Below are positions 1 through 48,316 of a DNA stretch of 64,000 bases, piece after piece. Position numbers and translations under genes: made by a program. The stretch's first letter is position 1. Each line of letters starts with the position of its first letter. Origin of the DNA: Nitrospirae bacterium UBA2233. GTDB lineage: Bacteria > UBA2233. Where the stretch lies: the NCBI GenBank assembly GCA_002347965.1, contig DDYN01000057.1:11365-75364 (forward strand), given 5' to 3'. The notes below the pieces were generated by a model. That model worked only from the letters and a program-made list of their open reading frames with translations, was not told the DNA's origin and searched no databases.

Positions 1-1221
1 CAACTCGCCGGAGATCAGCTTGGGCAGCAGGGTGTCACGGAGCTGGGCGAGGGTGCGGGAGTCTTCGGTATTGTTCCTGACCTTATCATCCAAGGCGCCA
101 CAAACCCTTTCGTAGAAATCTATCAGCCTTTGATCTGGCTCAACGAATGGCAGAACCTCAAACTGCTTTCTGTTTATCGCACCAAACACTGTCCCAGTAT
201 GTTCAAATTGTTTCAATTCTTCTTGCAGTGACCATATTGCGTGGTATGTGAATGACCTCGCCCCGGAAGCGTGCCGGACAGCAGCTACACCGCGACCTAT
301 ACAGCACTTCTCCCAAGCCAGATTTATGTCTCCAACCGGTGCGCGAACACTCACCAAGGTGTCTTCGGCGTTTGCAATCCTTGTCGGCGCTGAACAGTAC
401 TTCCTATTTTCCGGGTAGCGAAATCCGAAGTCCGTCTTGCCCTGAAAAAATGGCAAACCATCGCCAATGTCGTTGTATGTGTCGCCGGGAGGTGACTGCC
501 CCATCGTTAAGCTGAAGCACTCACCAACCTTTTTTCTCTCCCACCCCTCCGGCTTGCCCTCGTCGTCAAGGCGGTCGGGGAAAAGCTGCCAGAGCTCGTC
601 GGGGAGGTAGGGCTCACGGCCTTCCATCTTGGCGCGGATGGGGCCGAAGTCGACGAACCAGTCCTTGAATAGGGCGCGGGCCATAGCCTCCAGGGTCTGG
701 TTGCGGCGACGGTTAAGTTCAATCTTATCATCCAGCGTGCCCAGGATATGAGCGATGGCGCGCTGTTCGGGGAGCGGTGGCAAATCAATCTCAAAACGAC
801 CGAAAGCTGACTTGCTCAAGATCGGTTGAGCCGAACCACCGGCGGAACCGCAGATTTCCGATTTCCTTGTACTAAGGTTGTAGTAAACAAAAAGTGGTGA
901 ATCATCCGTCTCAATGATGATGCTGTTGATTTGCTGGTTGGTTACGCAATCGGTCCCGGCCAATGCAGCCTTGCCCATATCGGAGCCAATGCAGGACACC
1001 ATGACTGCATTCTTTGGAATCGCAGCGTTTTTCACCAACGATCGGCCGGATGTGGACAAGGTCCTTGCCGTGGTCGAGATGGTGCGAGCGCCATTCATGT
1101 CTGATGGCGTAATGAAAGGAATATTTCCCCCGAAAGCATCAACAGCGCTTGATGGCGGCGTCTTTCCTGTCACGATGCGACCAAGCTGGTTGAGTGTCTT
1201 CGTCTTCCACTCACCCTCCAT
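1..1221 (-). CDS. hsdS: Type I restriction-modification specificity subunit HsdS, two target-recognition domains; 3' end runs off the window start
   Basis: Manual minus-strand translation from ATG at 1221: MEGEWKTKTLNQLGRIVTGKTPP... The central conserved region GRFEIDLPPLPEQRAIAHILGTLDDKIELNRRRNQTLEAMARALFKDWFVDFGP is a hallmark HsdS motif. The frame stays open to position 1. It is absent from the ORF track because no stop lies inside the window. Confidence 0.8.
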   Translation of the reverse strand, partial: MEGEWKTKTLNQLGRIVTGKTPPSSAVDAFGGNIPFITPSDMNGARTISTTARTLSTSGRSLVKNAAIPKNAVMVSCIGSDMGKAALAGTDCVTNQQINSIIIETDDSPLFVYYNLSTRKSEICGSAGGSAQPILSKSAFGRFEIDLPPLPEQRAIAHILGTLDDKIELNRRRNQTLEAMARALFKDWFVDFGPIRAKMEGREPYLPDELWQLFPDRLDDEGKPEGWERKKVGECFSLTMGQSPPGDTYNDIGDGLPFFQGKTDFGFRYPENRKYCSAPTRIANAEDTLVSVRAPVGDINLAWEKCCIGRGVAAVRHASGARSFTYHAIWSLQEELKQFEHTGTVFGAINRKQFEVLPFVEPDQRLIDFYERVCGALDDKVRNNTEDSRTLAQLRDTLLPKLISGEL

Positions 1222-1370
1222 ACCCAAACCCCCCCCTAGATTGACCTTGATGGCCGCATCCTGCCTCACCACTTCGGCCTGCCACCACCCCACCTCAGCC
1301 AACAAATTCACGCGCCGTCCAAATAAATGCACGCGTGCATTTCGCGTGTATTTGCGTGCTTTTCTAACGC

Positions 1371-3068
1371 TCATTTCGGTGCCTTTCGGTAAGCAACGCT
1401 CCGTCCACGTTCACCTTCGCGAACGACAAGACCTTGCTGTGCCAACCGATCGAGCAGCCGGTAGGCTTGCGGGCCTGTAATCCGGCACAACTCCGTCGCC
1501 TCGCGCCGGGTGATCCGTCCGTGCTTTTCCACGTACTGCAATACCATCTGCTCCTGCTGTAGCGGCTCGAAGCCTCGCTGCCGAACGTAGCCCGCCTTGT
1601 CGTCCAGCAGACGATAGAGCGCCGCGGACAAATGCCATGTGCGGCCTTTCTTTTGACCGCGCTCTTCCACCAGACCCGTCTCCACCAGGCGGTGCAGCAC
1701 GCCGCGCCCGTCGGATTCCGGCTTCTGGACGAGCCGGGCCGCCTCCTCGGTGGTCAGTTCGCGCGTTTGCCACAAGGCGTTGAGGATAAGTAGTTCGTCG
1801 AGCGCAAGATCGCGCCCTTGCTGGGCTTCGGTGACCAGTAACCGCACGAAATCGAGATTGGCCGCTCCACCCGGGATAACGACGCTTACCGTGGCTTCGT
1901 TGCTGCGTGCGTAGGACGGCGCCGGACGGCCGTTGCGCAACTGTTCATAGAAGATGGTGTCGATGCCGCGCGCGGTGCGCTCGACGATGCCGGCGCGCTT
2001 GAAAGCGTCGGCGAGCAAGGGGTTACGCGGGCGTGGCGCGGTGACGAGCAAGTTATCCAGCCGCACGCCTTCGGGAAAGCCGCCGGGGTTGGTGATCTCG
2101 ATGTGATCGCTGTACCACTGAAAATGCACGGCTCCTAGGCGGAGATAGTCGCGGTGGATGAGCGCGTTGGCCAGCGCTTCGCGCAGGGCGCGCTCGGGAT
2201 AGTCCGGCACACCCACGCGCAGCAGCCCGACCATCAGCTCCTGCTCGCGATTGCGCGCGCGGATGCGCGCTTCGATCTCCTCCACGACTCGCAGGAGAGG
2301 CCAGCGAAAGAAATCGTTGACCTCCACGTCGAGCCCGCGCAGCACCTGGAACGCGACTTCATGCGCAGGGACGAAGCGGCGCAGCGCATCTTCCTTTCCA
2401 AACAGCAGCAGCGCCGCGAGGCGCACGCCGTACACGCTGCCATTAGCCTCCACCACGCCCAGCGCCTTGGCGAGCTCCAGATCCGGCAGCACTAGCAGGC
2501 TTTCGTCGCTGCGGCCACGCCGCTCGCGTACGCTGCGCCGGAAGCGCTCGAACTCCAGAGGGTCGAGGTTCTCCCAGCGCGCCTCGGCGACGAGTTGAGC
2601 CGATGGATCGAGCAACCTCCGGCCGGATTGCAGCGACTGTACGGCGTAGGCGTCCATCGGCACGCAGGCGGGTTTGCCATCACCGCCTATCACGCGCCGC
2701 AGAAACACACCGTCGGCAGTCGCCACCGGTTGCTGCTGGGGCGGTATTTCGATGACCAGTACCGTCGCATCGTTCACCTTCACTGTTTGGACTTGCACCG
2801 ATAAGGAAGGTCGGGTACGACTCGCGACCAGGGCAGCAAGCCGGTCAAGATCAGTGGTTGTGCCGTGTCTGGGGTGTGCGCCGGTGATCCGGCCATCATC
2901 CTCGACGCCAATGAGCAAACGACCCGGCTCGCCGTCGGACCTGTTGGCTAAGCATGCGACAGCCTCAACGAGGTCACGGTCGTTAAGCGAACAGCGCTCC
3001 TCGCCCTTGAACTCGACAGCCAGTGTTTCACCCCTCGTAATCAGGCGCTGAAGTGCATCGGGTGTCAT
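1371..3068 (-). CDS. Schlafen/AlbA_2-like putative DNA-binding domain + HATPase_c_4 (RecG C-terminal-like ATPase) + two winged-HTH protein (COG2865-like), embedded between hsdM and hsdS
   Basis: 565-aa ORF. The N-terminus LAVEFKGE...DLVEAVACLANRSDGEPGRLLIGVEDDGRITG matches the AlbA_2/Schlafen fold. The C-terminus carries HTH-like segments (LLILNALWQTRELTTEEAARLV; HGRITRREATELCRITGPQAYRLLDRL). It is co-oriented with hsdM and hsdS and tightly spaced. Confidence 0.65.
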   Translation of the reverse strand: MTPDALQRLITRGETLAVEFKGEERCSLNDRDLVEAVACLANRSDGEPGRLLIGVEDDGRITGAHPRHGTTTDLDRLAALVASRTRPSLSVQVQTVKVNDATVLVIEIPPQQQPVATADGVFLRRVIGGDGKPACVPMDAYAVQSLQSGRRLLDPSAQLVAEARWENLDPLEFERFRRSVRERRGRSDESLLVLPDLELAKALGVVEANGSVYGVRLAALLLFGKEDALRRFVPAHEVAFQVLRGLDVEVNDFFRWPLLRVVEEIEARIRARNREQELMVGLLRVGVPDYPERALREALANALIHRDYLRLGAVHFQWYSDHIEITNPGGFPEGVRLDNLLVTAPRPRNPLLADAFKRAGIVERTARGIDTIFYEQLRNGRPAPSYARSNEATVSVVIPGGAANLDFVRLLVTEAQQGRDLALDELLILNALWQTRELTTEEAARLVQKPESDGRGVLHRLVETGLVEERGQKKGRTWHLSAALYRLLDDKAGYVRQRGFEPLQQEQMVLQYVEKHGRITRREATELCRITGPQAYRLLDRLAQQGLVVREGERGRSVAYRKAPK

Positions 3069-3164
3069 GCCAAATCTTCCCTATGCTTTCTCGAAACGGT
3101 GTGTGTCTTTATTCAACGCTGCGTTTATCACAGTTGGGGGCGTGCCTCATGTTCAACGCACCGT

Positions 3165-4746
3165 TCAAAACCCAAGCGCCTTTAGGTTGGCCTTAATGGC
3201 TGCGTCGAGCTTGGCGGCTTCCTGCTGCTGCTCGCGCCACTGGCTTGTCAGGCGCTGCATCTTCTCCTCGAATGGCTCGTCATCGTCTTCGATATCGGCC
3301 GCACCGACATAGCGGCCAGGGGTGAGCACATGGCCGTGCTGGCGGATTTCCTCTAGGTTGGCTGATTTGCAAAAACCGGAGATGTCTTTGTATGCCCCCT
3401 CACCCCGACCCTCTCCCAGTGGGAGAGGGTCGGGGTGAGGGTCAACGGTACACCAGGCGTGGTAGGTGTCGGCGATCCTGCGAATGTCCTCCTCGGTCAG
3501 TTCACGGTGGGTGCGATCCACCATCACGCCCATCTTGCGGGCATCGATGAACAGCACCTCGCCACGCCGGTCACGCAGGCCCTTTCCGGGGTTCTTGTTG
3601 CGGGCAAGGAACCACAGGCAGGCGGGAATCGGTGTGGAATAGAACAACTGGCCGGGCAGGGCGACCATACAGTCCACAACGTCGGCTTCGATCATCGCTT
3701 TTCGAATCTCGCCTTCGCCAGACTGGTTGGAGCTCATAGAGCCATTGGCCAGCACCACGCCTGCTGTGCCATTGGGCGCCAAGTGATAGAAGATATGTTG
3801 TAACCACGCGAAGTTGGCGTTCCCGGCTGGCGGTGTGCCGAATTTCCAACGCTTGTCGTCTTTGAGTAGTTCCCCACCCCCAATTGGAATCGTTGAAGAA
3901 CGGATTAGCCAGCACGTAGTCAGCTTTGAGGTCAGGGTGCAGGTCGCGATGGAAACTGTCGGCGTGCTCTTTCCCCAGGTTGCCCTCAATTCCCCGGATG
4001 GCGAGGTTCATTTTAGCCAAGCGCCAGGTGGTGTAATTTGATTCTTGACCATAGATGCTAATATTGCCGATTCTGCCTCCGTGGGCCTCGACAAATCTTT
4101 CCGACTGGACGAACATACCCCCAGAGCCGCAGCAGGGGTCATAGACCCTGCCACTATAAGGGGCCAGCATCTCCACCAGCACGCGAACGACACAGCGGGG
4201 CGTGTAGAACTGGCCACCCTTCTTGCCCTCAGCGCTGGCAAACTTGGAGAGGAAATACTCGTAGACCCGGCCGATGATATCCTTGGAGCGGTTGGCTTCA
4301 TCCCCCAAGCCGATGGTGCCGATCAAGTCGATCAGCTGACCAAGGCGCTGTTTATCCAAGTTTGGGCGGGCGTAGTCCTTGGGCAGCACACCTTTGAGCG
4401 AGGGGTTATCGCGCTCGATGGCGAGCATGGCGTCATCGAAGACCTTGCCGATGGTCGGCTGCTTGGCCACGGATTGGAGATAAGACCAGCGCGCCTCTTT
4501 GGGCACCCAGAAGATGTTGGCAGCCCGGTACTCGTCAGGGTCTTCGGGGTCGGCCCCTTGGGCACGGTCCGCTTCGAGCAAGGCATGCTGCTCTTCAAAG
4601 GCATCAGAGATGTATTTAAGGAAGATTAAACCGAGTACGACGTGCTTATACTCGGCGGCGTCCATGTTGGAGCGGAGCTCGTCGGCGGCAAGCCAGAGCT
4701 TGGATTCGAAACCGAGGTTCGCGCCGTTGTTTTTGGTTTTTGCCAT
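3165..4746 (-). pseudogene. hsdM: Type I RM N6-adenine DNA methyltransferase HsdM, split into two overlapping reading frames by a 1-nt frameshift; an authentic frameshift or a sequencing error
   Basis: ORF 3571..4746 carries the HsdM N-terminal domain ([52 protein letters not shown]) up to the catalytic [13 protein letters not shown] 3165..3989 continues the methyltransferase ([28 protein letters not shown]...LFIDAR...) in another frame. The switch maps to the tract ccccaccccc at about 3872-3883. Confidence 0.8.
3397..3441. repeat. Perfect 21-bp-arm inverted repeat (CCCTCACCCCGACCCTCTCCC-agt-GGGAGAGGGTCGGGGTGAGGG) lying in frame inside the hsdM C-terminal coding region
   Basis: Read directly from the sequence; the arms are exact reverse complements. 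It encodes the Gly/Pro-rich segment [13 protein letters not shown], and its 45-nt length preserves the frame. Confidence 0.85.
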
Positions 4747-5003
4747 GTCTGATTTCCTGTAAGAGAGCCTTGCCCCGTTTGCCCAGGCCCAGGGCTAGGT
4801 CCTCGACCTGTTTGAGCGCCGGCGGCGAGGTCTTGATACAACCGTTCATGGCTGGGTAGGTCACGCCAAACTTGGCCACAAGTTTTCCTTCTTGTTGGCT
4901 TAAGTATCGCCGTCGGTCCCCCCTACCCAGGGTCAGGCCTCTAAATACTGAAAATGAATAGGCCAGGGGCTACCATCGCTAAAAAACTAACTCAGGCCCT
5001 GGA

Positions 5004-5144
5004 CTAGGAAGGATAAGGATAATATCCACCTTGAGTACCTCCTAGAAGAGCCATACTGCCAAGAAAAGGAATGGCACTTATGAAGGCCAGCAAGAAACTT
5101 TCTGTAGACACCCACAAAGAACCAATTAAACCAAGAGTTAGCAT
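5004..5144 (-). CDS. Small hydrophobic 46-aa peptide (MLTLGLIGSLWVSTESFLLAFISAIPFLGSMALLGGTQGGYYPYPS) in a low-GC intergenic segment; candidate membrane peptide
   Basis: ATG at 5144 is preceded by GGGAGGAG at 6 nt spacing, and TAG lies at 5004-5006. The peptide is largely one predicted transmembrane helix. No homology is claimed. Confidence 0.3.
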   Translation of the reverse strand: MLTLGLIGSLWVSTESFLLAFISAIPFLGSMALLGGTQGGYYPYPS

Positions 5145-5203
5145 GGCTTCTCCTCCCTTACGTTTCCACGCGTTACTCTCACATTTTAACGCAATTCCTT
5201 GAG
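5081..5203 (+). CDS. Small 40-aa hydrophilic ORF (MKASKKLSVDTHKEPIKPRVSMASPPLRFHALLSHFNAIP) antisense-overlapping the 46-aa peptide gene
   Basis: ATG at 5081 with AAGGA 9 nt upstream. It overlaps the 5' half of the minus-strand peptide gene. Speculative. Confidence 0.15.
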
Positions 5204-5555
5204 TACTATTTTATCATTTCCTTTATCCGCCTAAGGAGCTTAAGCCTCATCGGCGATGTTCTCCTTGCCGATGCCCAGACCTCCAAGCGCGTCTATGTAG
5301 GCCCCGAGAACGGTGTTCTTGCGACCCTTTCCTTTTTGCTCGCGAATTCCTGCCGGCCATGGTCTCACAGCCTACCGTAATCCGGACAAATGATGGCGTG
5401 AGCGGCTTGCCCGTGCTTCGTCAACCCTGGAGAAAGAAGGTTCGACATAAGGTCTGCTTGGTGCTCGGCGCACATCCCTAAAGAACCCTGGCTTGGCTGG
5501 CAATAGGTATGCTAAATTAAAAGCTGCAATCACAAGACAGTAGGACATCGAAGCC

Positions 5556-6329
5556 GTGGCCTCAAAACTGTCCTCTAAGGTGCAGCTTATTGCCATAGAC
5601 TTAGATGGGACGCTTCTTGACGGGGAAGGATCCCTCGATGCAGCGGCCTTGCCCCTTATTTCTAGCATCTTGAGCAGGGGGGCCTGTGTAACCCTGGCTA
5701 CAGGCCGCGACCCCCATAGCGCAACTCACTTAAGCAGGCCGATCACATGGAGCGCCCCGCTCGTGACCTGCAACGGGGCCGTTCTTTGGGATGTCGGCCG
5801 GCAAAGGCCTTTGATTAAGCGCACAATTCCTCTGGAGGCCGTCCGAAGCTGTCTTGGCTGCCTTCCAGAGTTTGGGCTTGTGCCTTTTGTCATGGAAATC
5901 ACCGCAGACCTCCGCTTCGTCGTCCGGCCAACAACCCAAGACGACAACTTCCACGAAGTCGTCAAACTCTACGCCTCCGGCGATGTTGCCAGCGTAGAAT
6001 CGGCCAAGGCCGAAATCAAGGCGCTCTTGGACGGCACCATTTACACGACCTCCTCGTTCCACGGCAACTTGGAGGTTTGTCCGGCGGGTGTAAGCAAGGC
6101 CTCCGGCCTGGATTCCGTGGCCAAGGCGTTGGGGATCCTGCCCGAAGAAATCGCCTGCATCGGCGATGGAGAGAACGACCTCGAGCTTTTTGGCTACGCG
6201 GGAGTCCGCGTTGCGATGGGGAACGCAATCGAGCCGCTCAAGGCCATGGCGGACTTCATTGCGCCCGCCAATACCGAGCATGGCGTGGCGGCGGCCCTCG
6301 CTTGGATCTTGTCGGCAACACAACCGTAG
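5556..6329 (+). CDS. Cof-type HAD-IIB family hydrolase (sugar-phosphatase-like)
   Basis: IAIDLDGTLL motif I near the N-terminus and IGDGENDLELFGYAGVRVAMGNA motif IV at the C-terminus. Confidence 0.8.
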   Translation: MASKLSSKVQLIAIDLDGTLLDGEGSLDAAALPLISSILSRGACVTLATGRDPHSATHLSRPITWSAPLVTCNGAVLWDVGRQRPLIKRTIPLEAVRSCLGCLPEFGLVPFVMEITADLRFVVRPTTQDDNFHEVVKLYASGDVASVESAKAEIKALLDGTIYTTSSFHGNLEVCPAGVSKASGLDSVAKALGILPEEIACIGDGENDLELFGYAGVRVAMGNAIEPLKAMADFIAPANTEHGVAAALAWILSATQP

Positions 6330-6436
6330 AATTTTCTCCTAGCCCCTGTTTCCCGTCTTTACGACAACCATCTCGAAGGGAGTATCCCGTGCTCATACAA
6401 AACGTAAGGTCGTCCGGGCAAAACGGAAACGACCTG

Positions 6437-9400
6437 ATGTCTAGGCTTACCTCTAACGCGCTGAAAGTTTTAGAAAAACGCTACCTGAAAAAAGACGAAA
6501 CAGGAAACGTTGTCGAGACACCATCCGAGCTCTTCGGGCGCGTGGCCGGAGCGATCGCCCAAGCCGAGGAGATATACGGGAAAGACCCGGGGGATGCCTA
6601 TCCAAGGTTCCTCGAACTCCTGACATCGCTTGATTTTCTCCCGAATTCGCCCACGCTGATGAACGCGGGCAGGCCTTTGGGCCAACTTAGCGCCTGCTTC
6701 GTCCTCCCCGTGGAAGACTCGCTGAACGGCATCTTCGAGACGGTGAAGCACGCCGCCCTGATCCACAAATCCGGCGGCGGCTGCATTGCCGGCGATGCTA
6801 GGGTCTGGAGCACGTTTTGTGGGCTGGAGCCTATCGAAGTGCTGTTCCATCGGACCACGGCGGACGGCCGCCCGGGCATCCGTCGCGGTTTTGGCGTCGC
6901 TTATGACGTGAACGACCTCAACATTCAGACCGCGGCCATGGACCCCGCCACTGGGTCCATGGGGTTGCGCAAGGTTACCCATGTCTGGAAGTTTGATGTC
7001 CCGGCTGCAGATCAAATGACGGTCCGAACGCGCGAGGGCACGGTCATCCAGACTAGCGCCTGGCATCCGTTCATGGTGCTGCGGGATACTGGCTTTGCCG
7101 AAGTCCGCGCTGATGAGCTCGCGCGAGGGGACGTGATCCTCGGACCGGACCGCCCGGATTCCTACTGGCCATGGTCTGAGTACCGTACGGCAGGCACTCT
7201 GACGATCGACCCCTGGATGGGCTGGCTCATCGGCTTTACCTTGGGCGACGGGTCGTTTGACTACGTGCCCTCTCTGAGGCAGTACAGGGTGCGTTGGTTC
7301 TCCGGCACCCGCGACGTGCTGGAGCGCGTGCAAGAGGTCCTGGCCTCGAGGGACATTCACGTCGCCATCCAGCGGGACAACCGGAGCACAGAAAGCTTTT
7401 TGCTGACTACCCTGTCTCAGCGGTTCGTGCATGACCTGCTGGAAGCCTGCGGGCTCGGCGCAATCGGCGTCAAGGAGGACCACATCCGGGTTCCAGAGGC
7501 TATCGCCAAGTCGCCCCTGCCGGTCGTGCGCGCGTTCCTTGCCGGGCTTCTGGACAGCGACGGCTACGTCGCCAAGGATGGCAGTCCGTCCTACTCCACG
7601 ATTTCGGAAGAGTTTGCCCAGGACTTGGCCGCGCTTGCCGCCCTGATGGGCTACCGTCCCACGGTATCCAAGGAGAACCCGCGGGGTAGGGGAAAGCGGG
7701 CGGTGTTCAACGTGCAGGTCTGTCCCCTGCCCCAAGTCCTGCAACTCGCCGACGACCTGCAAGTCTACCTGGCCAACCGCTTCCGGCTCGCCCGGCTCTC
7801 CACGGAGAGCACAAGAGAAACCGCGCTGCGACTCCCGTTACGGGCCTGGCGTGACCGGATGGCGGAGCTGGGGCTGGTCCGGCTAAGGGGTGATAAGTCA
7901 ACCGGACCCGGATCCTGCGCCGTAGAGCTTAAGCGATGGTCCTGCAACGCCAATCATCGCTGCCGCCGCGATGACCTGCGCACCATTGCCTCGCAGGTGC
8001 GGCTCCAAGACCCGGACCTGGCAGCGCTCATGGAGCGTGTCGCGGCACGCGGCCAGGAAATTGCTCGTGTAGGGCGGGCGACAACGCCCAAGCCCTACTA
8101 CGACCTTTCCGTGGAGGGTTGGAACACGTACGCTGCCGGACAGTCTGGCCTAGCCATGGTCCACAATACCGGGTTCTCCTTCTCGCGCCTAAGGCCCGAA
8201 GGAGACCTCGTCCACTCGACCAAGGGGGTGTCCTCCGGCCCGGTCTCGTTCATGGGCGTGTTCGATGCCGCGACCGACACGATCAAGCAAGGGGGGACAA
8301 GGCGCGGTGCGAATATGGGGATACTTAGGGTCGACCACCCCGACATCGAAGCGTTCATTGTCTGCAAGCGCGACGGCAAGCGGTTTCAGAATTTCAACAT
8401 TTCCGTAGCCATCACGGATGCGTTCATGGGGGCACTCGAGACGGGTGCCGAGTACGCGCTGATCAACCCCAGGGACGGCAGCGTCGTCCGGATGGAGAGT
8501 GCCAGGCGTATCTTCGAGCTTATCGTCGAGAACGCCTGGGCTACGGGAGACCCGGGCATCGTTTTTATAGATAGGGTAAACGCCAAAAACCCGACGCCCC
8601 ATGCGGGCCAAATCGAGAGCTGCAACCCCTGCGGCGAGCAGTTCCTTTTGCCCTACGAGTCCTGCAACTTGGGCTCGATCAACCTCTCCAACTTTGTCAA
8701 GGACGGCCGGATTGACTTCGGTAGGCTCCAGGGGGCCGTAGGGACCGCTGTCCATTTTCTGGACAACGTGATTGACATGAACCGCTACCCGCTGGAGGAG
8801 ATTTCCAGGGTAACGCTCGCGAACCGCAAGGTCGGGCTCGGTGTGATGGGGTTCGCCGACATGCTGATCCTTCTTGGCGTGCCCTACGACTCCCGGAGGG
8901 CGCTCGAGATCGCCGGCGAGGTGATGGGCTTTATCCACGAGGAGGCCGTCTTGGCATCCCGAAAGCTTGCCAAAGATCGAGGGCCTTTCCCCAACTTTGA
9001 AGGGAGCGTTTACAGCATCCCCCAGCGCAACGCGATGGTTACGACCGTCGCGCCGACGGGGACGATCAGCATCATCGCGGGGTGTTCTTCCGGAATCGAG
9101 CCTCTGTTCGCCGTCAGCTACGTTCGGAACGTGCTTGACGGCCATAGGCTGATCGAAGTGCACCCGGAGTTTGCGCGGATCGCCAAAGAGCGTGGGTTTT
9201 ACTCCGAAGCGCTCATGGAGAGGATCGCGTTCGAGGGTAGCGTTGCGCACGTCGAGGAGGTTCCAGAAGACGTGCGAGGGCTGTTCGTGTGCGCCCACGA
9301 CATTCCATCGGAACAGCATGTAAGGATGCAGGCGGCCTTCCAGGCGCACGTGGACAACGCCATCTCCAAAACGGTGAACTTTCCGTTCGAAGCGCCGCCG

Positions 9401-10003
9401 GAAGCCGTCGAAAAGGTCTACCTTTTGGCCTGGGAACAGGGCTGCAAGGGGGTAACGATCTACAGGGACGGCTCTAGGGAAGCCCAGGTGCTAGAGACGG
9501 GTAAGACGCGGGTTGTACGAGAGGGCGGGCAAGCGCCGCTAGTCCAAGCCAGACCAGCCAAGCGCAAGCGCCCCAAGGTCCTCAATGGGACGACGATCCA
9601 GATGGATACGGGCTGCGGACCGATGTACGTGACGATCAACGAGGACGAGCGGGGGCTATTCGAGCTGTTCAACACGATCGGAAAGGCGGGTGGCTGCGCG
9701 GCATCACAGTCCGAGGCGATCGGCCGTCTGGTATCGCTCGCCTGGCGGAGCGGGATTCCTGCGGAAGAAACCACCAAGCAGCTTATCGGAATCCGCTGCC
9801 ACAAGCCCGTCGGGTTTGGGGACAATCAGATTACCTCGTGCGCCGATGCTATCGCGAAGGCCGTTCTTACGCACTTGGGGGAAGACAAACACAAATATCA
9901 AGACCCTCCATCCTACGGTGCCTGCCCCGAGTGCGGAGGTACGCTCGAGCCAAAAGAGGGCTGCGCGACTTGCAAAGAGTGTGGATATTCTGAGTGCGAA
10001 TAG
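6437..10003 (+). CDS. nrdJ: Adenosylcobalamin-dependent (class II) ribonucleoside reductase NrdJ, intein-containing. Start chosen at [17 protein letters not shown]; an in-frame GTG at 6389 with a stronger SD is an alternative start
   Basis: N-extein ...[24 protein letters not shown]...IHKSGGG and C-extein [33 protein letters not shown]... reconstruct the class II RNR GGGTGFSFS core. The C-terminal Cys-rich tail CPECGG...[12 protein letters not shown] is present. The track ORF 6077..10003 includes a spurious 5' extension overlapping the HAD gene. Confidence 0.9.
   Translation: [1188 protein letters not shown]
6782..8167 (+). mobile_element. Intein (462 aa) with two LAGLIDADG-type homing-endonuclease motifs, inserted in the NrdJ GGG^TGFSF active-site region
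   Basis: Begins with Cys (CIAGDARV...) immediately after GGG and ends ...LAMVHN before Thr+1. Internal motifs are [11 protein letters not shown] and [11 protein letters not shown]. Confidence 0.85.
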
Positions 10004-45556: not shown

Positions 45557-45644
45557 TGGTGCCGAGGGCCGGAATCGAACCGGCACGGAGGAATCCCCCG
45601 AGGGATTTTAAGTCCCTTGCGTCTACCTGTTCCGCCACCCCGGC
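45557..45644 (-). tRNA. tRNA-Leu (anticodon TAA), class II long variable arm, CCA encoded
   Basis: Manual fold: acceptor GCCGGGG/CCUCGGC, anticodon arm AGGGA-CUUAAAA-UCCCU, T-arm CCGGUUCGAUUCCGG. Confidence 0.85.
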
Positions 45645-48160: not shown

Positions 48161-48237
48161 GTCCCCATCGTCTAGACGGCCCAGGACACAGGCCTTTCAA
48201 GCCTGAAACGGGGGTTCGAATCCCCCTGGGGACGCCA
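48161..48237 (+). tRNA. tRNA-Glu (anticodon TTC), CCA encoded
   Basis: GUCCCCA.../...UGGGGAC-G-CCA; near-identical architecture to canonical bacterial tRNA-Glu. Confidence 0.9.
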
Positions 48238-48241
48238 TTTT

Positions 48242-48316
48242 GGGCCGTTAGCTCAGTGGCAGAGCATCTGCCTTTTAAGCAGAGGGTCGCTGGTTCGAAT
48301 CCAGCACGGCTCACCA
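48242..48316 (+). tRNA. tRNA-Lys (anticodon TTT), CCA encoded
   Basis: GGGCCGUUAGCUCAGUGGCAGAGCAUCUGCCUUUUAAGCAGAGGGUCGCUGGUUCGAAUCCAGCACGGCUCACCA. Confidence 0.9.

Follow-up and report, generated by a model that had tools for sequence, protein, structure and literature searches.

A Schlafen-ATPase-winged-helix gene retained at a decaying type I restriction-modification locus, with a candidate DNA site after its stop codon

Architecture of the embedded gene

We analyzed a 64-kb stretch of DNA from Nitrospirae bacterium UBA2233 (GenBank assembly GCA_002347965.1, contig DDYN01000057.1, positions 11,365 to 75,364), hereafter the window, in whose coordinates positions are given unless another locus (L followed by a number) is named. 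Its subject here is a gene of 565 amino acids (aa) that lies inside a type I restriction-modification (RM) locus, and whose product joins a Schlafen (SLFN) nuclease domain, a GHKL ATPase domain and two winged helix-turn-helix (wHTH) domains. Window proteins were searched with Pfam profiles and PADLOC models. Between positions 1 and 4746 the minus-strand order is hsdM (3165–4746), the 565-aa gene (1371–3068) and hsdS (1–1221, clipped by the window edge). Open reading frames (ORFs), Pfam and PADLOC all bear out this order, which had been proposed in a preliminary description made from the sequence alone, and the domain assignment of that description (AlbA_2, HATPase_c_4 and two HTH domains) was recovered by the Pfam profiles. 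The gene and the sequence directly after it contain the following features:

1371–3068, minus strand: intact 565-aa gene, SLFN nuclease, GHKL ATPase and two wHTH domains ('Schlatpase-HTH' or pSlfn 'HisKinase-HTH'), from Pfam
2691–3029, minus strand: SLFN_AlbA_2 nuclease domain, aa 14–126 (PF04326, E 5e-16)
1881–2129, minus strand: GHKL/HATPase_c_4 ATPase core, aa 314–396 (PF13749, E 9e-18)
1599–1811, minus strand: first wHTH (wHTH1), about aa 420–490 (TrmB and HTH_27 matches at 425–481)
1374–1571, minus strand: second, swappable wHTH (wHTH2), about aa 500–565 (MarR_2 and HTH_39 matches at 505–560, and structural model)
1325–1363, minus strand: array of four half-sites, putative cognate site of wHTH2, 8–46 nucleotides (nt) past the stop codon
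1363–1354, minus strand: half-site AAAAGCACGC of the array
1353–1343, minus strand: half-site AAATACACGCG of the array
1342–1325, minus strand: perfect palindrome AAATGCACG/CGTGCATTT of the array

Schlafen nucleases restrict viruses in hosts from bacteria to humans. The N-terminal domain of the 565-aa protein carries the features of this family, namely the PF04326 match, a fold like the SLFN C-lobe, the catalytic E-x4-(E/D)-x-K motif and the Schlafen box. The motif reads G-E14-TLAV-E19-F-K21 (E-x4-E-x-K), and the domain also contains a 'CLAN' box with N42 and the sequence GVEDDG at residues 54–59. In an alignment of 91 full-length relatives with 33–77% identity, N42 is invariant, and conservation reaches at least 90% at E14, E19, F20 and K21. 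PF13749 follows the SLFN domain in the same polypeptide, and the Glu and Asn of a Bergerat N-box are present as E297-x3-N301, at about nt 2164–2178, just upstream of the Pfam span. E297, N301, H305, R306, G329, G368 and G380 are invariant among the 91 relatives, and the N-box is followed by an invariant H305-R306-D307-Y308. We equate E297 and N301 with E314 and N318 of RzAgo, the SLFN-pAgo protein of Runella zeae, by motif spacing and not by structural superposition. Judged by these motifs, both catalytic centers look functional.

Using a diverse alignment, AlphaFold2 returned a model with a pLDDT (predicted local distance difference test) of 95.7 and a pTM (predicted template modeling score) of 0.89, while an earlier model built from 78–88% identical sequences had a poor ATPase domain, with pLDDT values of 30–50. 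Structure searches matched the fold to SLFN13 (Foldseek E 2e-4, from the first model), SLFN11, the AlbA_2 domain of SAMD9 and the full-length homolog 3LMM. This last structure is a structural-genomics entry for DIP2311 of Corynebacterium diphtheriae, which is homologous over its full length at an identity of only ~22%. The C-terminal third resembles the winged helices of MarR, ArsR and Z-alpha proteins. In the model, wHTH1 is made of helices 423–435, 440–447 and 451–463 and strands 467–470 and 477–480; the recognition helix of wHTH2 spans residues 532–544 (P-Q-A-Y536-R-L-L) and its wing reads G-E-R-G-R-S-V-A-Y560. Neither Pfam nor PADLOC matched an ABC or AAA domain in the 565-aa protein, and no PADLOC defense-protein model matched it over its full length; the partial matches were to Aga_SIR2-PNTD (39 bits), pAgo (32 bits, residues 288–393) and PDC-S50 (20 bits).

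A recognized class embedded in several kinds of defense loci

Proteins of this kind have been catalogued recently. Among 5,930 pSlfns, 'HisKinase-HTH' is the second commonest architecture, at 19.2%, while defense and tRNA cleavage were demonstrated for other architectures only (Taboada et al., bioRxiv 10.1101/2025.07.24.666596). The SLFN and PF13749 pair has been named 'Schlatpase' and found in 60,692 proteins, most of them with a C-terminal HTH, and an exchange of Schlatpase modules with type I RM loci was noted (Kuzmenko et al., bioRxiv 10.64898/2026.05.29.728809). The same study established PF13749 of RzAgo as an ATP-binding GHKL domain in which E314 and N318 coordinate Mg-ATP, and showed that ATP binding leads to a tetramer with an active, tRNA-cleaving SLFN dimer. 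Homologs with Schlafen, ATPase and DNA-binding domains are tightly linked to RM, BREX and type I CRISPR systems according to the Cash paper (PMC13462974), which states that the activation mechanism of such Schlafens is unknown and that over half of the defense-linked bacterial Schlafens are attached to RM-type systems. In a BREX survey, at least 1,017 taxa had 'Schlafen + minimal histidine kinase + wHTH' proteins, which were presumed to be 'backup suicidal effectors' (NAR 2026, PMC12839542). Other pSlfn proteins defend against phage by tRNA cleavage (PMC13462974; bioRxiv 10.1101/2025.07.24.666596).

The window protein shares with the HisKinase-HTH or Schlatpase class the domain order SLFN_AlbA_2 (PF04326), GHKL (PF13749) and HTH, the Ex4(E/D)xK motif and the genomic association with RM and other defense genes, and there is no architectural difference between them. 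It also shares the SLFN and PF13749 module with RzAgo, but the invader sensor of RzAgo is a guide-loaded Argonaute core of ~700 residues, and the window protein has two wHTH domains and no Argonaute. The 565-aa protein is a member of a recognized, experimentally unproven class of presumed anti-phage genes. The preliminary description had called such proteins uncharacterized, which holds in that no activity has been demonstrated, but the class was catalogued in 2025–26 and its links to RM, BREX and Hma systems are published.

An exhaustive search of 1.84 billion cluster representatives retrieved 12,274 related clusters at an E-value cutoff of 1e-3, and 605 at the stricter cutoff of 1e-30. From a scan of one genome per species that found 199 relatives, we surveyed the best 80, which are 60–86% identical and come from more than 20 phyla. 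Neighboring genes in these loci were located with the window's own proteins as probes, and the remainder with Pfam and PADLOC. Homologs with 78–97% identity occur in Deinococcota, Chloroflexota, Acidobacteriota, Verrucomicrobiota, several proteobacterial classes and others. An hsdM gene lies directly upstream in 39 of the 80 loci (33 of the 64 with at least 1 kb of upstream sequence), and in 26 of these 39 the hsdM ORF extends up to or into the start codon of the embedded gene. Where enough downstream sequence was available, hsdS followed in 28 of 61 loci. About 10 copies are embedded in Hma systems, flanked by HmaA (SNF2+NOV_C helicase) on one side and HmaB (DUF1156 methylase) on the other, and the remaining loci have mixed neighbors that include housekeeping genes. 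The claim that homologs recur inside type I RM operons and defense loci is thus confirmed by their linkage. BREX had been guessed as the second context from large flanking ORFs, and was rejected when Pfam and PADLOC identified HmaA, HmaB and HmaC (SNF2+NOV_C, DUF1156 methyltransferase and DUF499 ATPase). The embedded protein is 77–79% identical in the same loci where HsdM is 70% and HsdR 64% identical, a difference that we do not use, the loci having been picked by similarity of the embedded protein.

A half-site array that varies with the last winged helix

At nearly all loci, short repeated half-sites of 9–10 nt are found in 3–5 copies within the 100 nt after the stop codon, most often as a single perfect palindrome accompanied by one to three additional half-sites. 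The half-sites in the window start 10–11 nt apart, and the 16-mer core occurs a single time in the 64 kb. Half-sites of other loci differ in sequence and are, as here, AT-rich on the outside with CG at the center (TATGAGCG/CGCTCATA; ATAACCGCG/CGCGGTTAT; TACGGGCG/CGCCCGTA; TATGACCG/CGGTCATA; TACGTGCG/CGCACGTA). Of 79 loci, 49% have a perfect palindrome (arms of 8 nt or longer) no more than 95 nt from the stop codon, compared with 1.3% of 3,065 random windows from the same loci. Exact matches to the half-sites cluster at the 3' end of the gene and nowhere else consistently, and they do so in non-RM and Hma loci as well. A second exact cluster was seen only in L044, at ~630–670 inside hsdM and ~2 kb upstream of the stop codon, with AATGCACG at -2020, -1999 and -1991 and a copy with one mismatch at -1980.

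The core of the half-site goes with the type of wHTH2. A recognition helix with Q-A-Y and an RGR wing is accompanied by GCACG in 19 of 21 loci, Q-A-T with a KGxWY wing by GAGCG in 14 of 15, Q-A-Y with a KGxWY wing by AACCG, AACGA or AACGG in 11 of 16, and Q-A-K by CGGGC in two of four. The rest of the protein behaves differently: identity over residues 1–500 averages 73.8% for pairs that share a site and 71.0% for pairs with different sites. Sites differ despite 98.8% (L002/L088) or 92.4% (L012/L015) identity over these residues, and the same site is shared by proteins that are only 60–62% identical. Site type appears almost independent of residues 1–500, and appears to follow the type of wHTH2. 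We measured conservation of the array by local alignment, since insertions and deletions invalidate ungapped comparison. For pairs of the same wHTH2 type with no more than 72% overall identity, four-fold degenerate sites are 37–40% identical, yet the region from -10 to +60 around the stop codon gives local scores of 14–19, against a background of 7 both in the next 70 nt and in comparisons between types.

Arrays also follow two more distant relatives. AATTGCA palindromes come after the stop codon of a 33%-identical relative. In L093, a 41%-identical relative, ACAAAAC direct repeats with an exact 10-nt period and no palindromes lie after the stop (~1790–1850), which suggests that the principle of a 3' array extends to differently arranged sites.

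Site-specific DNA binding by the C-terminal wHTH looks real from this covariation, and wHTH2 probably binds the array as two dimers. Folded as RNA, the window array is not unusually stable (z +0.57). An Rfam scan of positions 1–6600 gave a single sub-threshold miRNA match, and a promoter scan gave nothing near the array. An integron attC-like site was considered and rejected, because the core motifs of such sites are not matched and because the array varies with the wHTH of the protein itself. Palindromes or operators go unmentioned in the most relevant Schlatpase and pSlfn papers, and searches under domain and structure names found nothing. In the literature that we searched we did not find a report of the 3' half-site array or of its covariation with the last wHTH.

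One explanation for such an array is that the protein is a local operon regulator, in which the wHTH sets the expression of hsdS and hsdR in the manner of a controller, and the SLFN and GHKL domains merely sense or bind a ligand. The protein does have two wHTH domains with matches to the regulator families MarR, IclR and TrmB, and in RM-linked loci the array sits exactly between the gene and hsdS, where a roadblock or operator would fit. The array, however, accompanies the gene whatever lies downstream, including in non-RM and Hma loci, and it lies 3' of its own gene and is absent from promoter regions, with no second cluster except the one in hsdM of L044. The Ex4ExK motif and the ATPase N-box are at least 90% conserved in distant relatives, and regulation would leave most of a 565-aa protein with three activities unexplained. 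We regard this explanation as unlikely. The preliminary description had allowed that the inserted gene might be merely a local regulator, and this is at odds with the conservation of both nuclease and ATPase motifs across relatives of 33–77% identity. RM controller (C) proteins, BrxR and CapW are similar in being site-specific HTH proteins of defense operons with a palindromic cognate site nearby. C proteins, however, are repressor/activators of ~80 aa with operators upstream of their own gene, whereas the array in the window is downstream of the stop codon and the 565-aa protein adds nuclease and ATPase domains; it is neither a small HTH protein nor one with an upstream operator.

Lesions in the surrounding RM operon

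The RM genes on either side of the embedded gene contain the following features:

3165–4746, minus strand: hsdM, type I RM methyltransferase gene, now a pseudogene, in frame pieces 3571–4746 and 3165–3989
3895–3906, minus strand: catalytic motif IV of hsdM, N-P-F-F for N-P-P-F, six codons upstream of the frameshift
3872–3881, minus strand: frameshift site of hsdM, surplus G in AATTGGGGGTGGGG; run GGGGG-T-GGGG, DNA read as AAT TGG GGG TGG GGA
1237–1281, minus strand: degenerate relic of an HsdM C-terminus, QAEVVRQDAAIKVNL, between the array and the hsdS start (tblastn E 0.16, weak)
1–1221, minus strand: hsdS specificity subunit, probable start MEGEW at 1221, last 42 nt past the window edge

The identity of hsdM is clear from Pfam matches of its pieces to HsdM_N (PF12161, 9e-27) and N6_Mtase (PF02384, 2.5e-52 and 1.5e-52) and from PADLOC MTase_I (PDLC03019, 442 and 283 bits). 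The N6_Mtase profile is split at position 144, between the ORFs 3571–4746 and 3165–3989. When one G is deleted from the run, a 526-aa HsdM results that is collinear with its homologs, which read NPPFN.SDW(G/R)GE.L at the position of the frameshift. The surplus G is also present in seven metagenome contigs from separate samples or studies, in gapless alignment at 99.8–100% identity. Because seven independent contigs carry the same base without a gap, the frameshift is a real mutation and not an assembly error. In addition, motif IV is NPPF in all 37 homologous hsdM genes of the surveyed loci and NPFF here. This substitution, P283F, and one other change are the only singleton deviations in the window hsdM, so the inactivation is recent. 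With the +1 frameshift and NPFF, no intact, catalytically competent HsdM is encoded, and as far as can be judged from sequence the RM system at this locus is non-functional. The preliminary description had identified hsdM correctly but overlooked both the surplus G at 3872–3881 and the motif substitution. Phase variation or programmed frameshifting at the G-run was rejected, the run being only 5 G, the same in seven contigs and accompanied by a substitution in a catalytic motif.

HsdS matches Methylase_S (E 6e-37) in two stretches and covers the PADLOC Specificity_I profiles end to end; it has two target-recognition domains, and its full ORF of 471 codons is present on L002. A longer hsdS ORF starts at 1374, where it overlaps the stop codon of the embedded gene as ATGA.

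No hsdR was found inside the window among the ORFs or by Pfam or PADLOC, as the preliminary description had observed. It had left two alternatives, hsdR beyond hsdS or lost, and the first is correct. Eleven public contigs encode an identical 565-aa protein, and two of them (L002 and L003) match the window at 100% over 12 kb. These identical contigs give the full operon as split hsdM, SLFN gene, hsdS, ABC-type ATPase, DUF4276, hsdR, Rce1-like and ABC transporter. The overlapping contigs carry an intact hsdR of 1025 aa, ~2 kb past hsdS, with HSDR_N, ResIII and T1RH-like_C domains and a match to PADLOC REase_I over its whole length (1186 bits), which excludes its loss. It has nine singleton substitutions, compared with a median of three.

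The ATPase and DUF4276 pair between hsdS and hsdR corresponds to PADLOC HEC-01A (384 and 138 bits) and HEC-01B (222 bits). HEC-01 was originally identified as a candidate system within Hma operons (Payne et al., bioRxiv 10.1101/2024.01.29.577857), and published tests of it showed no protection. As there, an ABC-ATPase and a DUF4276/TOPRIM protein are embedded as a pair in a defense operon; here, however, the host operon is type I RM and not Hma, and HEC-01A has a nonsense codon, an in-frame TAA where the 84%-identical ortholog of L017 has CAA. The pair, HEC-01A (ABC ATPase) and HEC-01B (DUF4276/TOPRIM), lies at L002 13107–14923, 0–1.8 kb past hsdS and outside the window. The same six-gene architecture is found in L017 (Thiobacillaceae), with HEC-01A intact. 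Judging from these reading frames, the operon carries two fresh inactivating lesions, the hsdM frameshift and the HEC-01A nonsense codon.

The gene is kept where the RM genes are lost

A 97%-identical allele (P0001) lies at the same chromosomal site in a sister lineage represented by four loci (L088–L091). This lineage has deleted the body of hsdM (corresponding to L002 8298–9671) and everything from the end of the embedded gene to just past hsdR (L002 11586–18214). The ORF nevertheless still has 565 codons, and it is the only island gene retained. Between the window and the sister allele there are 11 synonymous and six non-synonymous codon differences over 528 shared codons, while the flanking hsdM remnant has 13 differences in 330 bp, so the gene diverges less than its flank. 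In the window lineage the embedded gene has no singleton deviations at 153 conserved columns. By these comparisons the gene is apparently under purifying selection in both lineages. The last 37 residues of the sister allele and its 3' array have been swapped jointly for those of another allele. Upstream, the sister lineage has a helicase-type gene of 1638 aa (AAA_11/AAA_12, DUF559, MTES_1575), which the window lineage lacks.

Since the sister lineage has deleted the RM genes and the window hsdM is broken, the embedded gene is apparently kept for a function that is independent of HsdM, HsdS and HsdR. This bears on a guard model after PrrC, a tRNA nuclease that is almost confined to type I RM systems: the nuclease would be held latent by contact with HsdM, HsdS and HsdR, and unleashed when a phage anti-restriction protein disables the complex. 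The position of the gene inside type I RM operons, usually in translational coupling to hsdM (overlapping or abutting in 26 of 39), agrees with such a model, as does the view of these proteins as 'backup suicidal effectors' (PMC12839542). But a frameshifted hsdM provides no M2S core, the sister lineage has no hsdM, hsdS or hsdR, and the gene is intact and constrained in both; a nuclease silenced by the RM complex alone should then be lethal or lost. Relatives that are 60–70% identical, moreover, sit in Hma operons or in non-defense neighborhoods. The likeness to PrrC of EcoprrI (and to RloC) is that of a presumed tRNA-cutting suicide effector within an hsd operon. PrrC, however, has an ABC-ATPase N-domain and lies between hsdS and hsdR, whereas the ATPase of the window protein is GHKL; and PrrC latency depends on the RM complex, whereas the window gene persists without RM. 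Neither the PrrC-type ABC-ATPase domain nor dependence on a cognate type I RM complex is thus seen here, and retention without RM argues against silencing by the complex in the manner of PrrC, which we consider improbable. The preliminary description had read the gene as an accessory or abortive-infection gene. A defense gene remains a reasonable reading, but an RM-dependent accessory does not, the RM genes having been lost while the gene was kept.

A further explanation is that the whole island is decaying and that the embedded ORF, without current function, has so far been spared. Two neighboring genes have indeed been inactivated recently, and hsdR has its excess of singleton substitutions. 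The absence of any such deviation at the 153 conserved columns, the mostly synonymous differences between lineages, the lower divergence of the gene than of its flank, and its retention as the only island gene in the sister lineage make this the least credible explanation, and we give it very little weight.

Relics of hsdM and the question of mobility

The trace of an HsdM C-terminus in the window has counterparts at the same position, between array and hsdS, in at least 20 RM-linked loci. The longest, in L027, is 65 aa with 60% identity (E 2e-25). Compared with the HsdM tail of their own locus, the relics are 79% identical in L027 and 53% in L039. In these two loci (L027 11695–11982 and L039 11785–12033) they are still small ORFs that start at an ATGA overlap with the stop codon of the embedded gene. 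Insertion of the gene and its array into the 3' end of hsdM, with a duplication of that end, could have left these relics, as could the deletion of most of a second, downstream hsdM. In L052, hsdM-like genes (956–3277 and 6206–7771) flank the embedded gene on both sides, an arrangement that could be the precursor of the relics elsewhere. A 14-nt near-palindromic motif occurs twice in the window, at 3112–3125 and 3152–3165 (minus strand, AACGGTGCGTTGAA and AACGCAGCGTTGAA), and its copies fall in the 96-bp spacer from the hsdM stop to the start of the embedded gene. A similar sequence, TGAACGCTGCGTTG, comes after the hsdM relic of L026, and the motif may mark an ancestral hsdM-hsdS junction.

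The G+C content is 0.62–0.67 in the embedded gene, 0.52–0.60 in hsdM and hsdS and 0.49–0.50 in the spacer upstream of hsdM (4750–5500). The preliminary description had taken this spacer for a low-GC remnant; it is 82% conserved in the sister lineage, and we found no sign of a gene remnant in it.

A further alternative is that of a selfish cassette of protein plus site, which would persist by addiction, with the DNA site as antidote, or move by site-specific DNA cleavage, defense not being primary. In its favor are the orthologs with 60–86% identity in more than 20 phyla, a gene that is richer in G+C than its surroundings, the relics of the hsdM 3' end as an insertion or deletion scar, the shuffling of wHTH2 and site as a unit and the survival of the gene when its neighbors are deleted. 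Yet no integrase, transposase or second end-site lies beside the gene, the array being at one end only, and characterized SLFN domains cut RNA and not DNA. The close family was also not found in collections of sequenced plasmids and phages, where there were distant relatives only (below 32% identity on plasmids, and with low coverage in both); no vehicle for horizontal spread was found in these collections. We think it unlikely that this account holds.

Elsewhere in the window

Beside the locus, at 6390–10003 on the plus strand, a ribonucleotide reductase gene contains an intein that has a homing-endonuclease domain of the LAGLIDADG type; the 1204-aa product has Pfam matches to Ribonuc_red_lgN, Intein_splicing, Hom_end, LAGLIDADG_3, Ribonuc_red_lgC and TSCPD. 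A tRNA-Leu(taa) gene at 45557–45644 and a tRNA-Glu(ttc)/tRNA-Lys(ttt) pair at 48161–48316 are distant, with no apparent link to the locus.

Discussion

On balance we lean toward reading the gene as a self-contained defense or toxin module of the Schlafen type that came in with a type I RM operon, itself horizontally spread, and that acts independently of RM. Its effector would be the N-terminal SLFN domain, a predicted metal-dependent endoribonuclease with an intact Ex4ExK site, for which tRNA is a likely substrate by analogy. The GHKL ATPase would serve as the switch, binding ATP and driving the assembly of a dimer or tetramer into an active two-lobed SLFN nuclease, as shown for RzAgo. Both RNA (tRNA) cleavage and ATP-driven oligomerization are inferred from RzAgo, Cash and RorSlfn5. 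For control, the C-terminal wHTH would read the allele-specific array of about four half-sites directly after its own stop codon, so that the oligomer could be held on, or regulated from, its own locus; it is the covariation that points to this binding. Binding to the array might result in parking and inhibition, or in a transcriptional roadblock and autoregulation.

Several observations weigh against this reading. The RNA substrate, the ATP dependence and the oligomeric state are all transferred from RzAgo, whose Argonaute sensor the window protein lacks. Neither an activity nor a defense phenotype has been demonstrated for any protein of the SLFN-HisKinase-HTH architecture; when seven pSlfns were tested (Taboada et al., bioRxiv 10.1101/2025.07.24.666596), only two protected, and both had other architectures. 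The 565-aa protein is not covered by a model in PADLOC v2. The top 50–60 PDB matches listed in the structure searches were 3LMM, SLFN and wHTH entries, with wHTH filling the lists and no GHKL entry among them, so the ATPase fold rests on the Pfam match and its motifs. As for the array, the inverted half-sites of several loci fold as stable RNA hairpins (z -2.5 to -6.9), and it may have a role as a terminator or RNA hairpin. Part of the covariation between wHTH2 and site is linkage, because the two are physically adjacent, and L092, a 50%-identical relative, has no clear array.

A more specific version of the self-contained module, which we put forward only tentatively and think rather doubtful, is that the ATP-assembled tetramer is kept inactive on its private array, whose approximately four half-sites are helically phased, and that wHTH2 and site form an exchangeable specificity module. 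Loss of, damage to or competition for the array DNA would free the tRNA nuclease, and the triggers of release would be phage-induced breakdown of the chromosome, deletion of the locus or invading DNA that carries the motif.

Whichever mechanism applies, the loss of RM genes in these lineages is a natural experiment, in which the gene was kept when the RM system was lost, and it counts against a simple model of a guard of RM. As a defined DNA of 40 bp, the array is a candidate for the ligand that the sensor end of the protein recognizes, and its half-site core appears to be related to the recognition helix residue (Y, T, K, G or S) and the wing type by a recognition code. If the tetramer is indeed parked on its array, the flanking DNA would be an antidote or guard signal, which would explain how the gene outlives its RM system.

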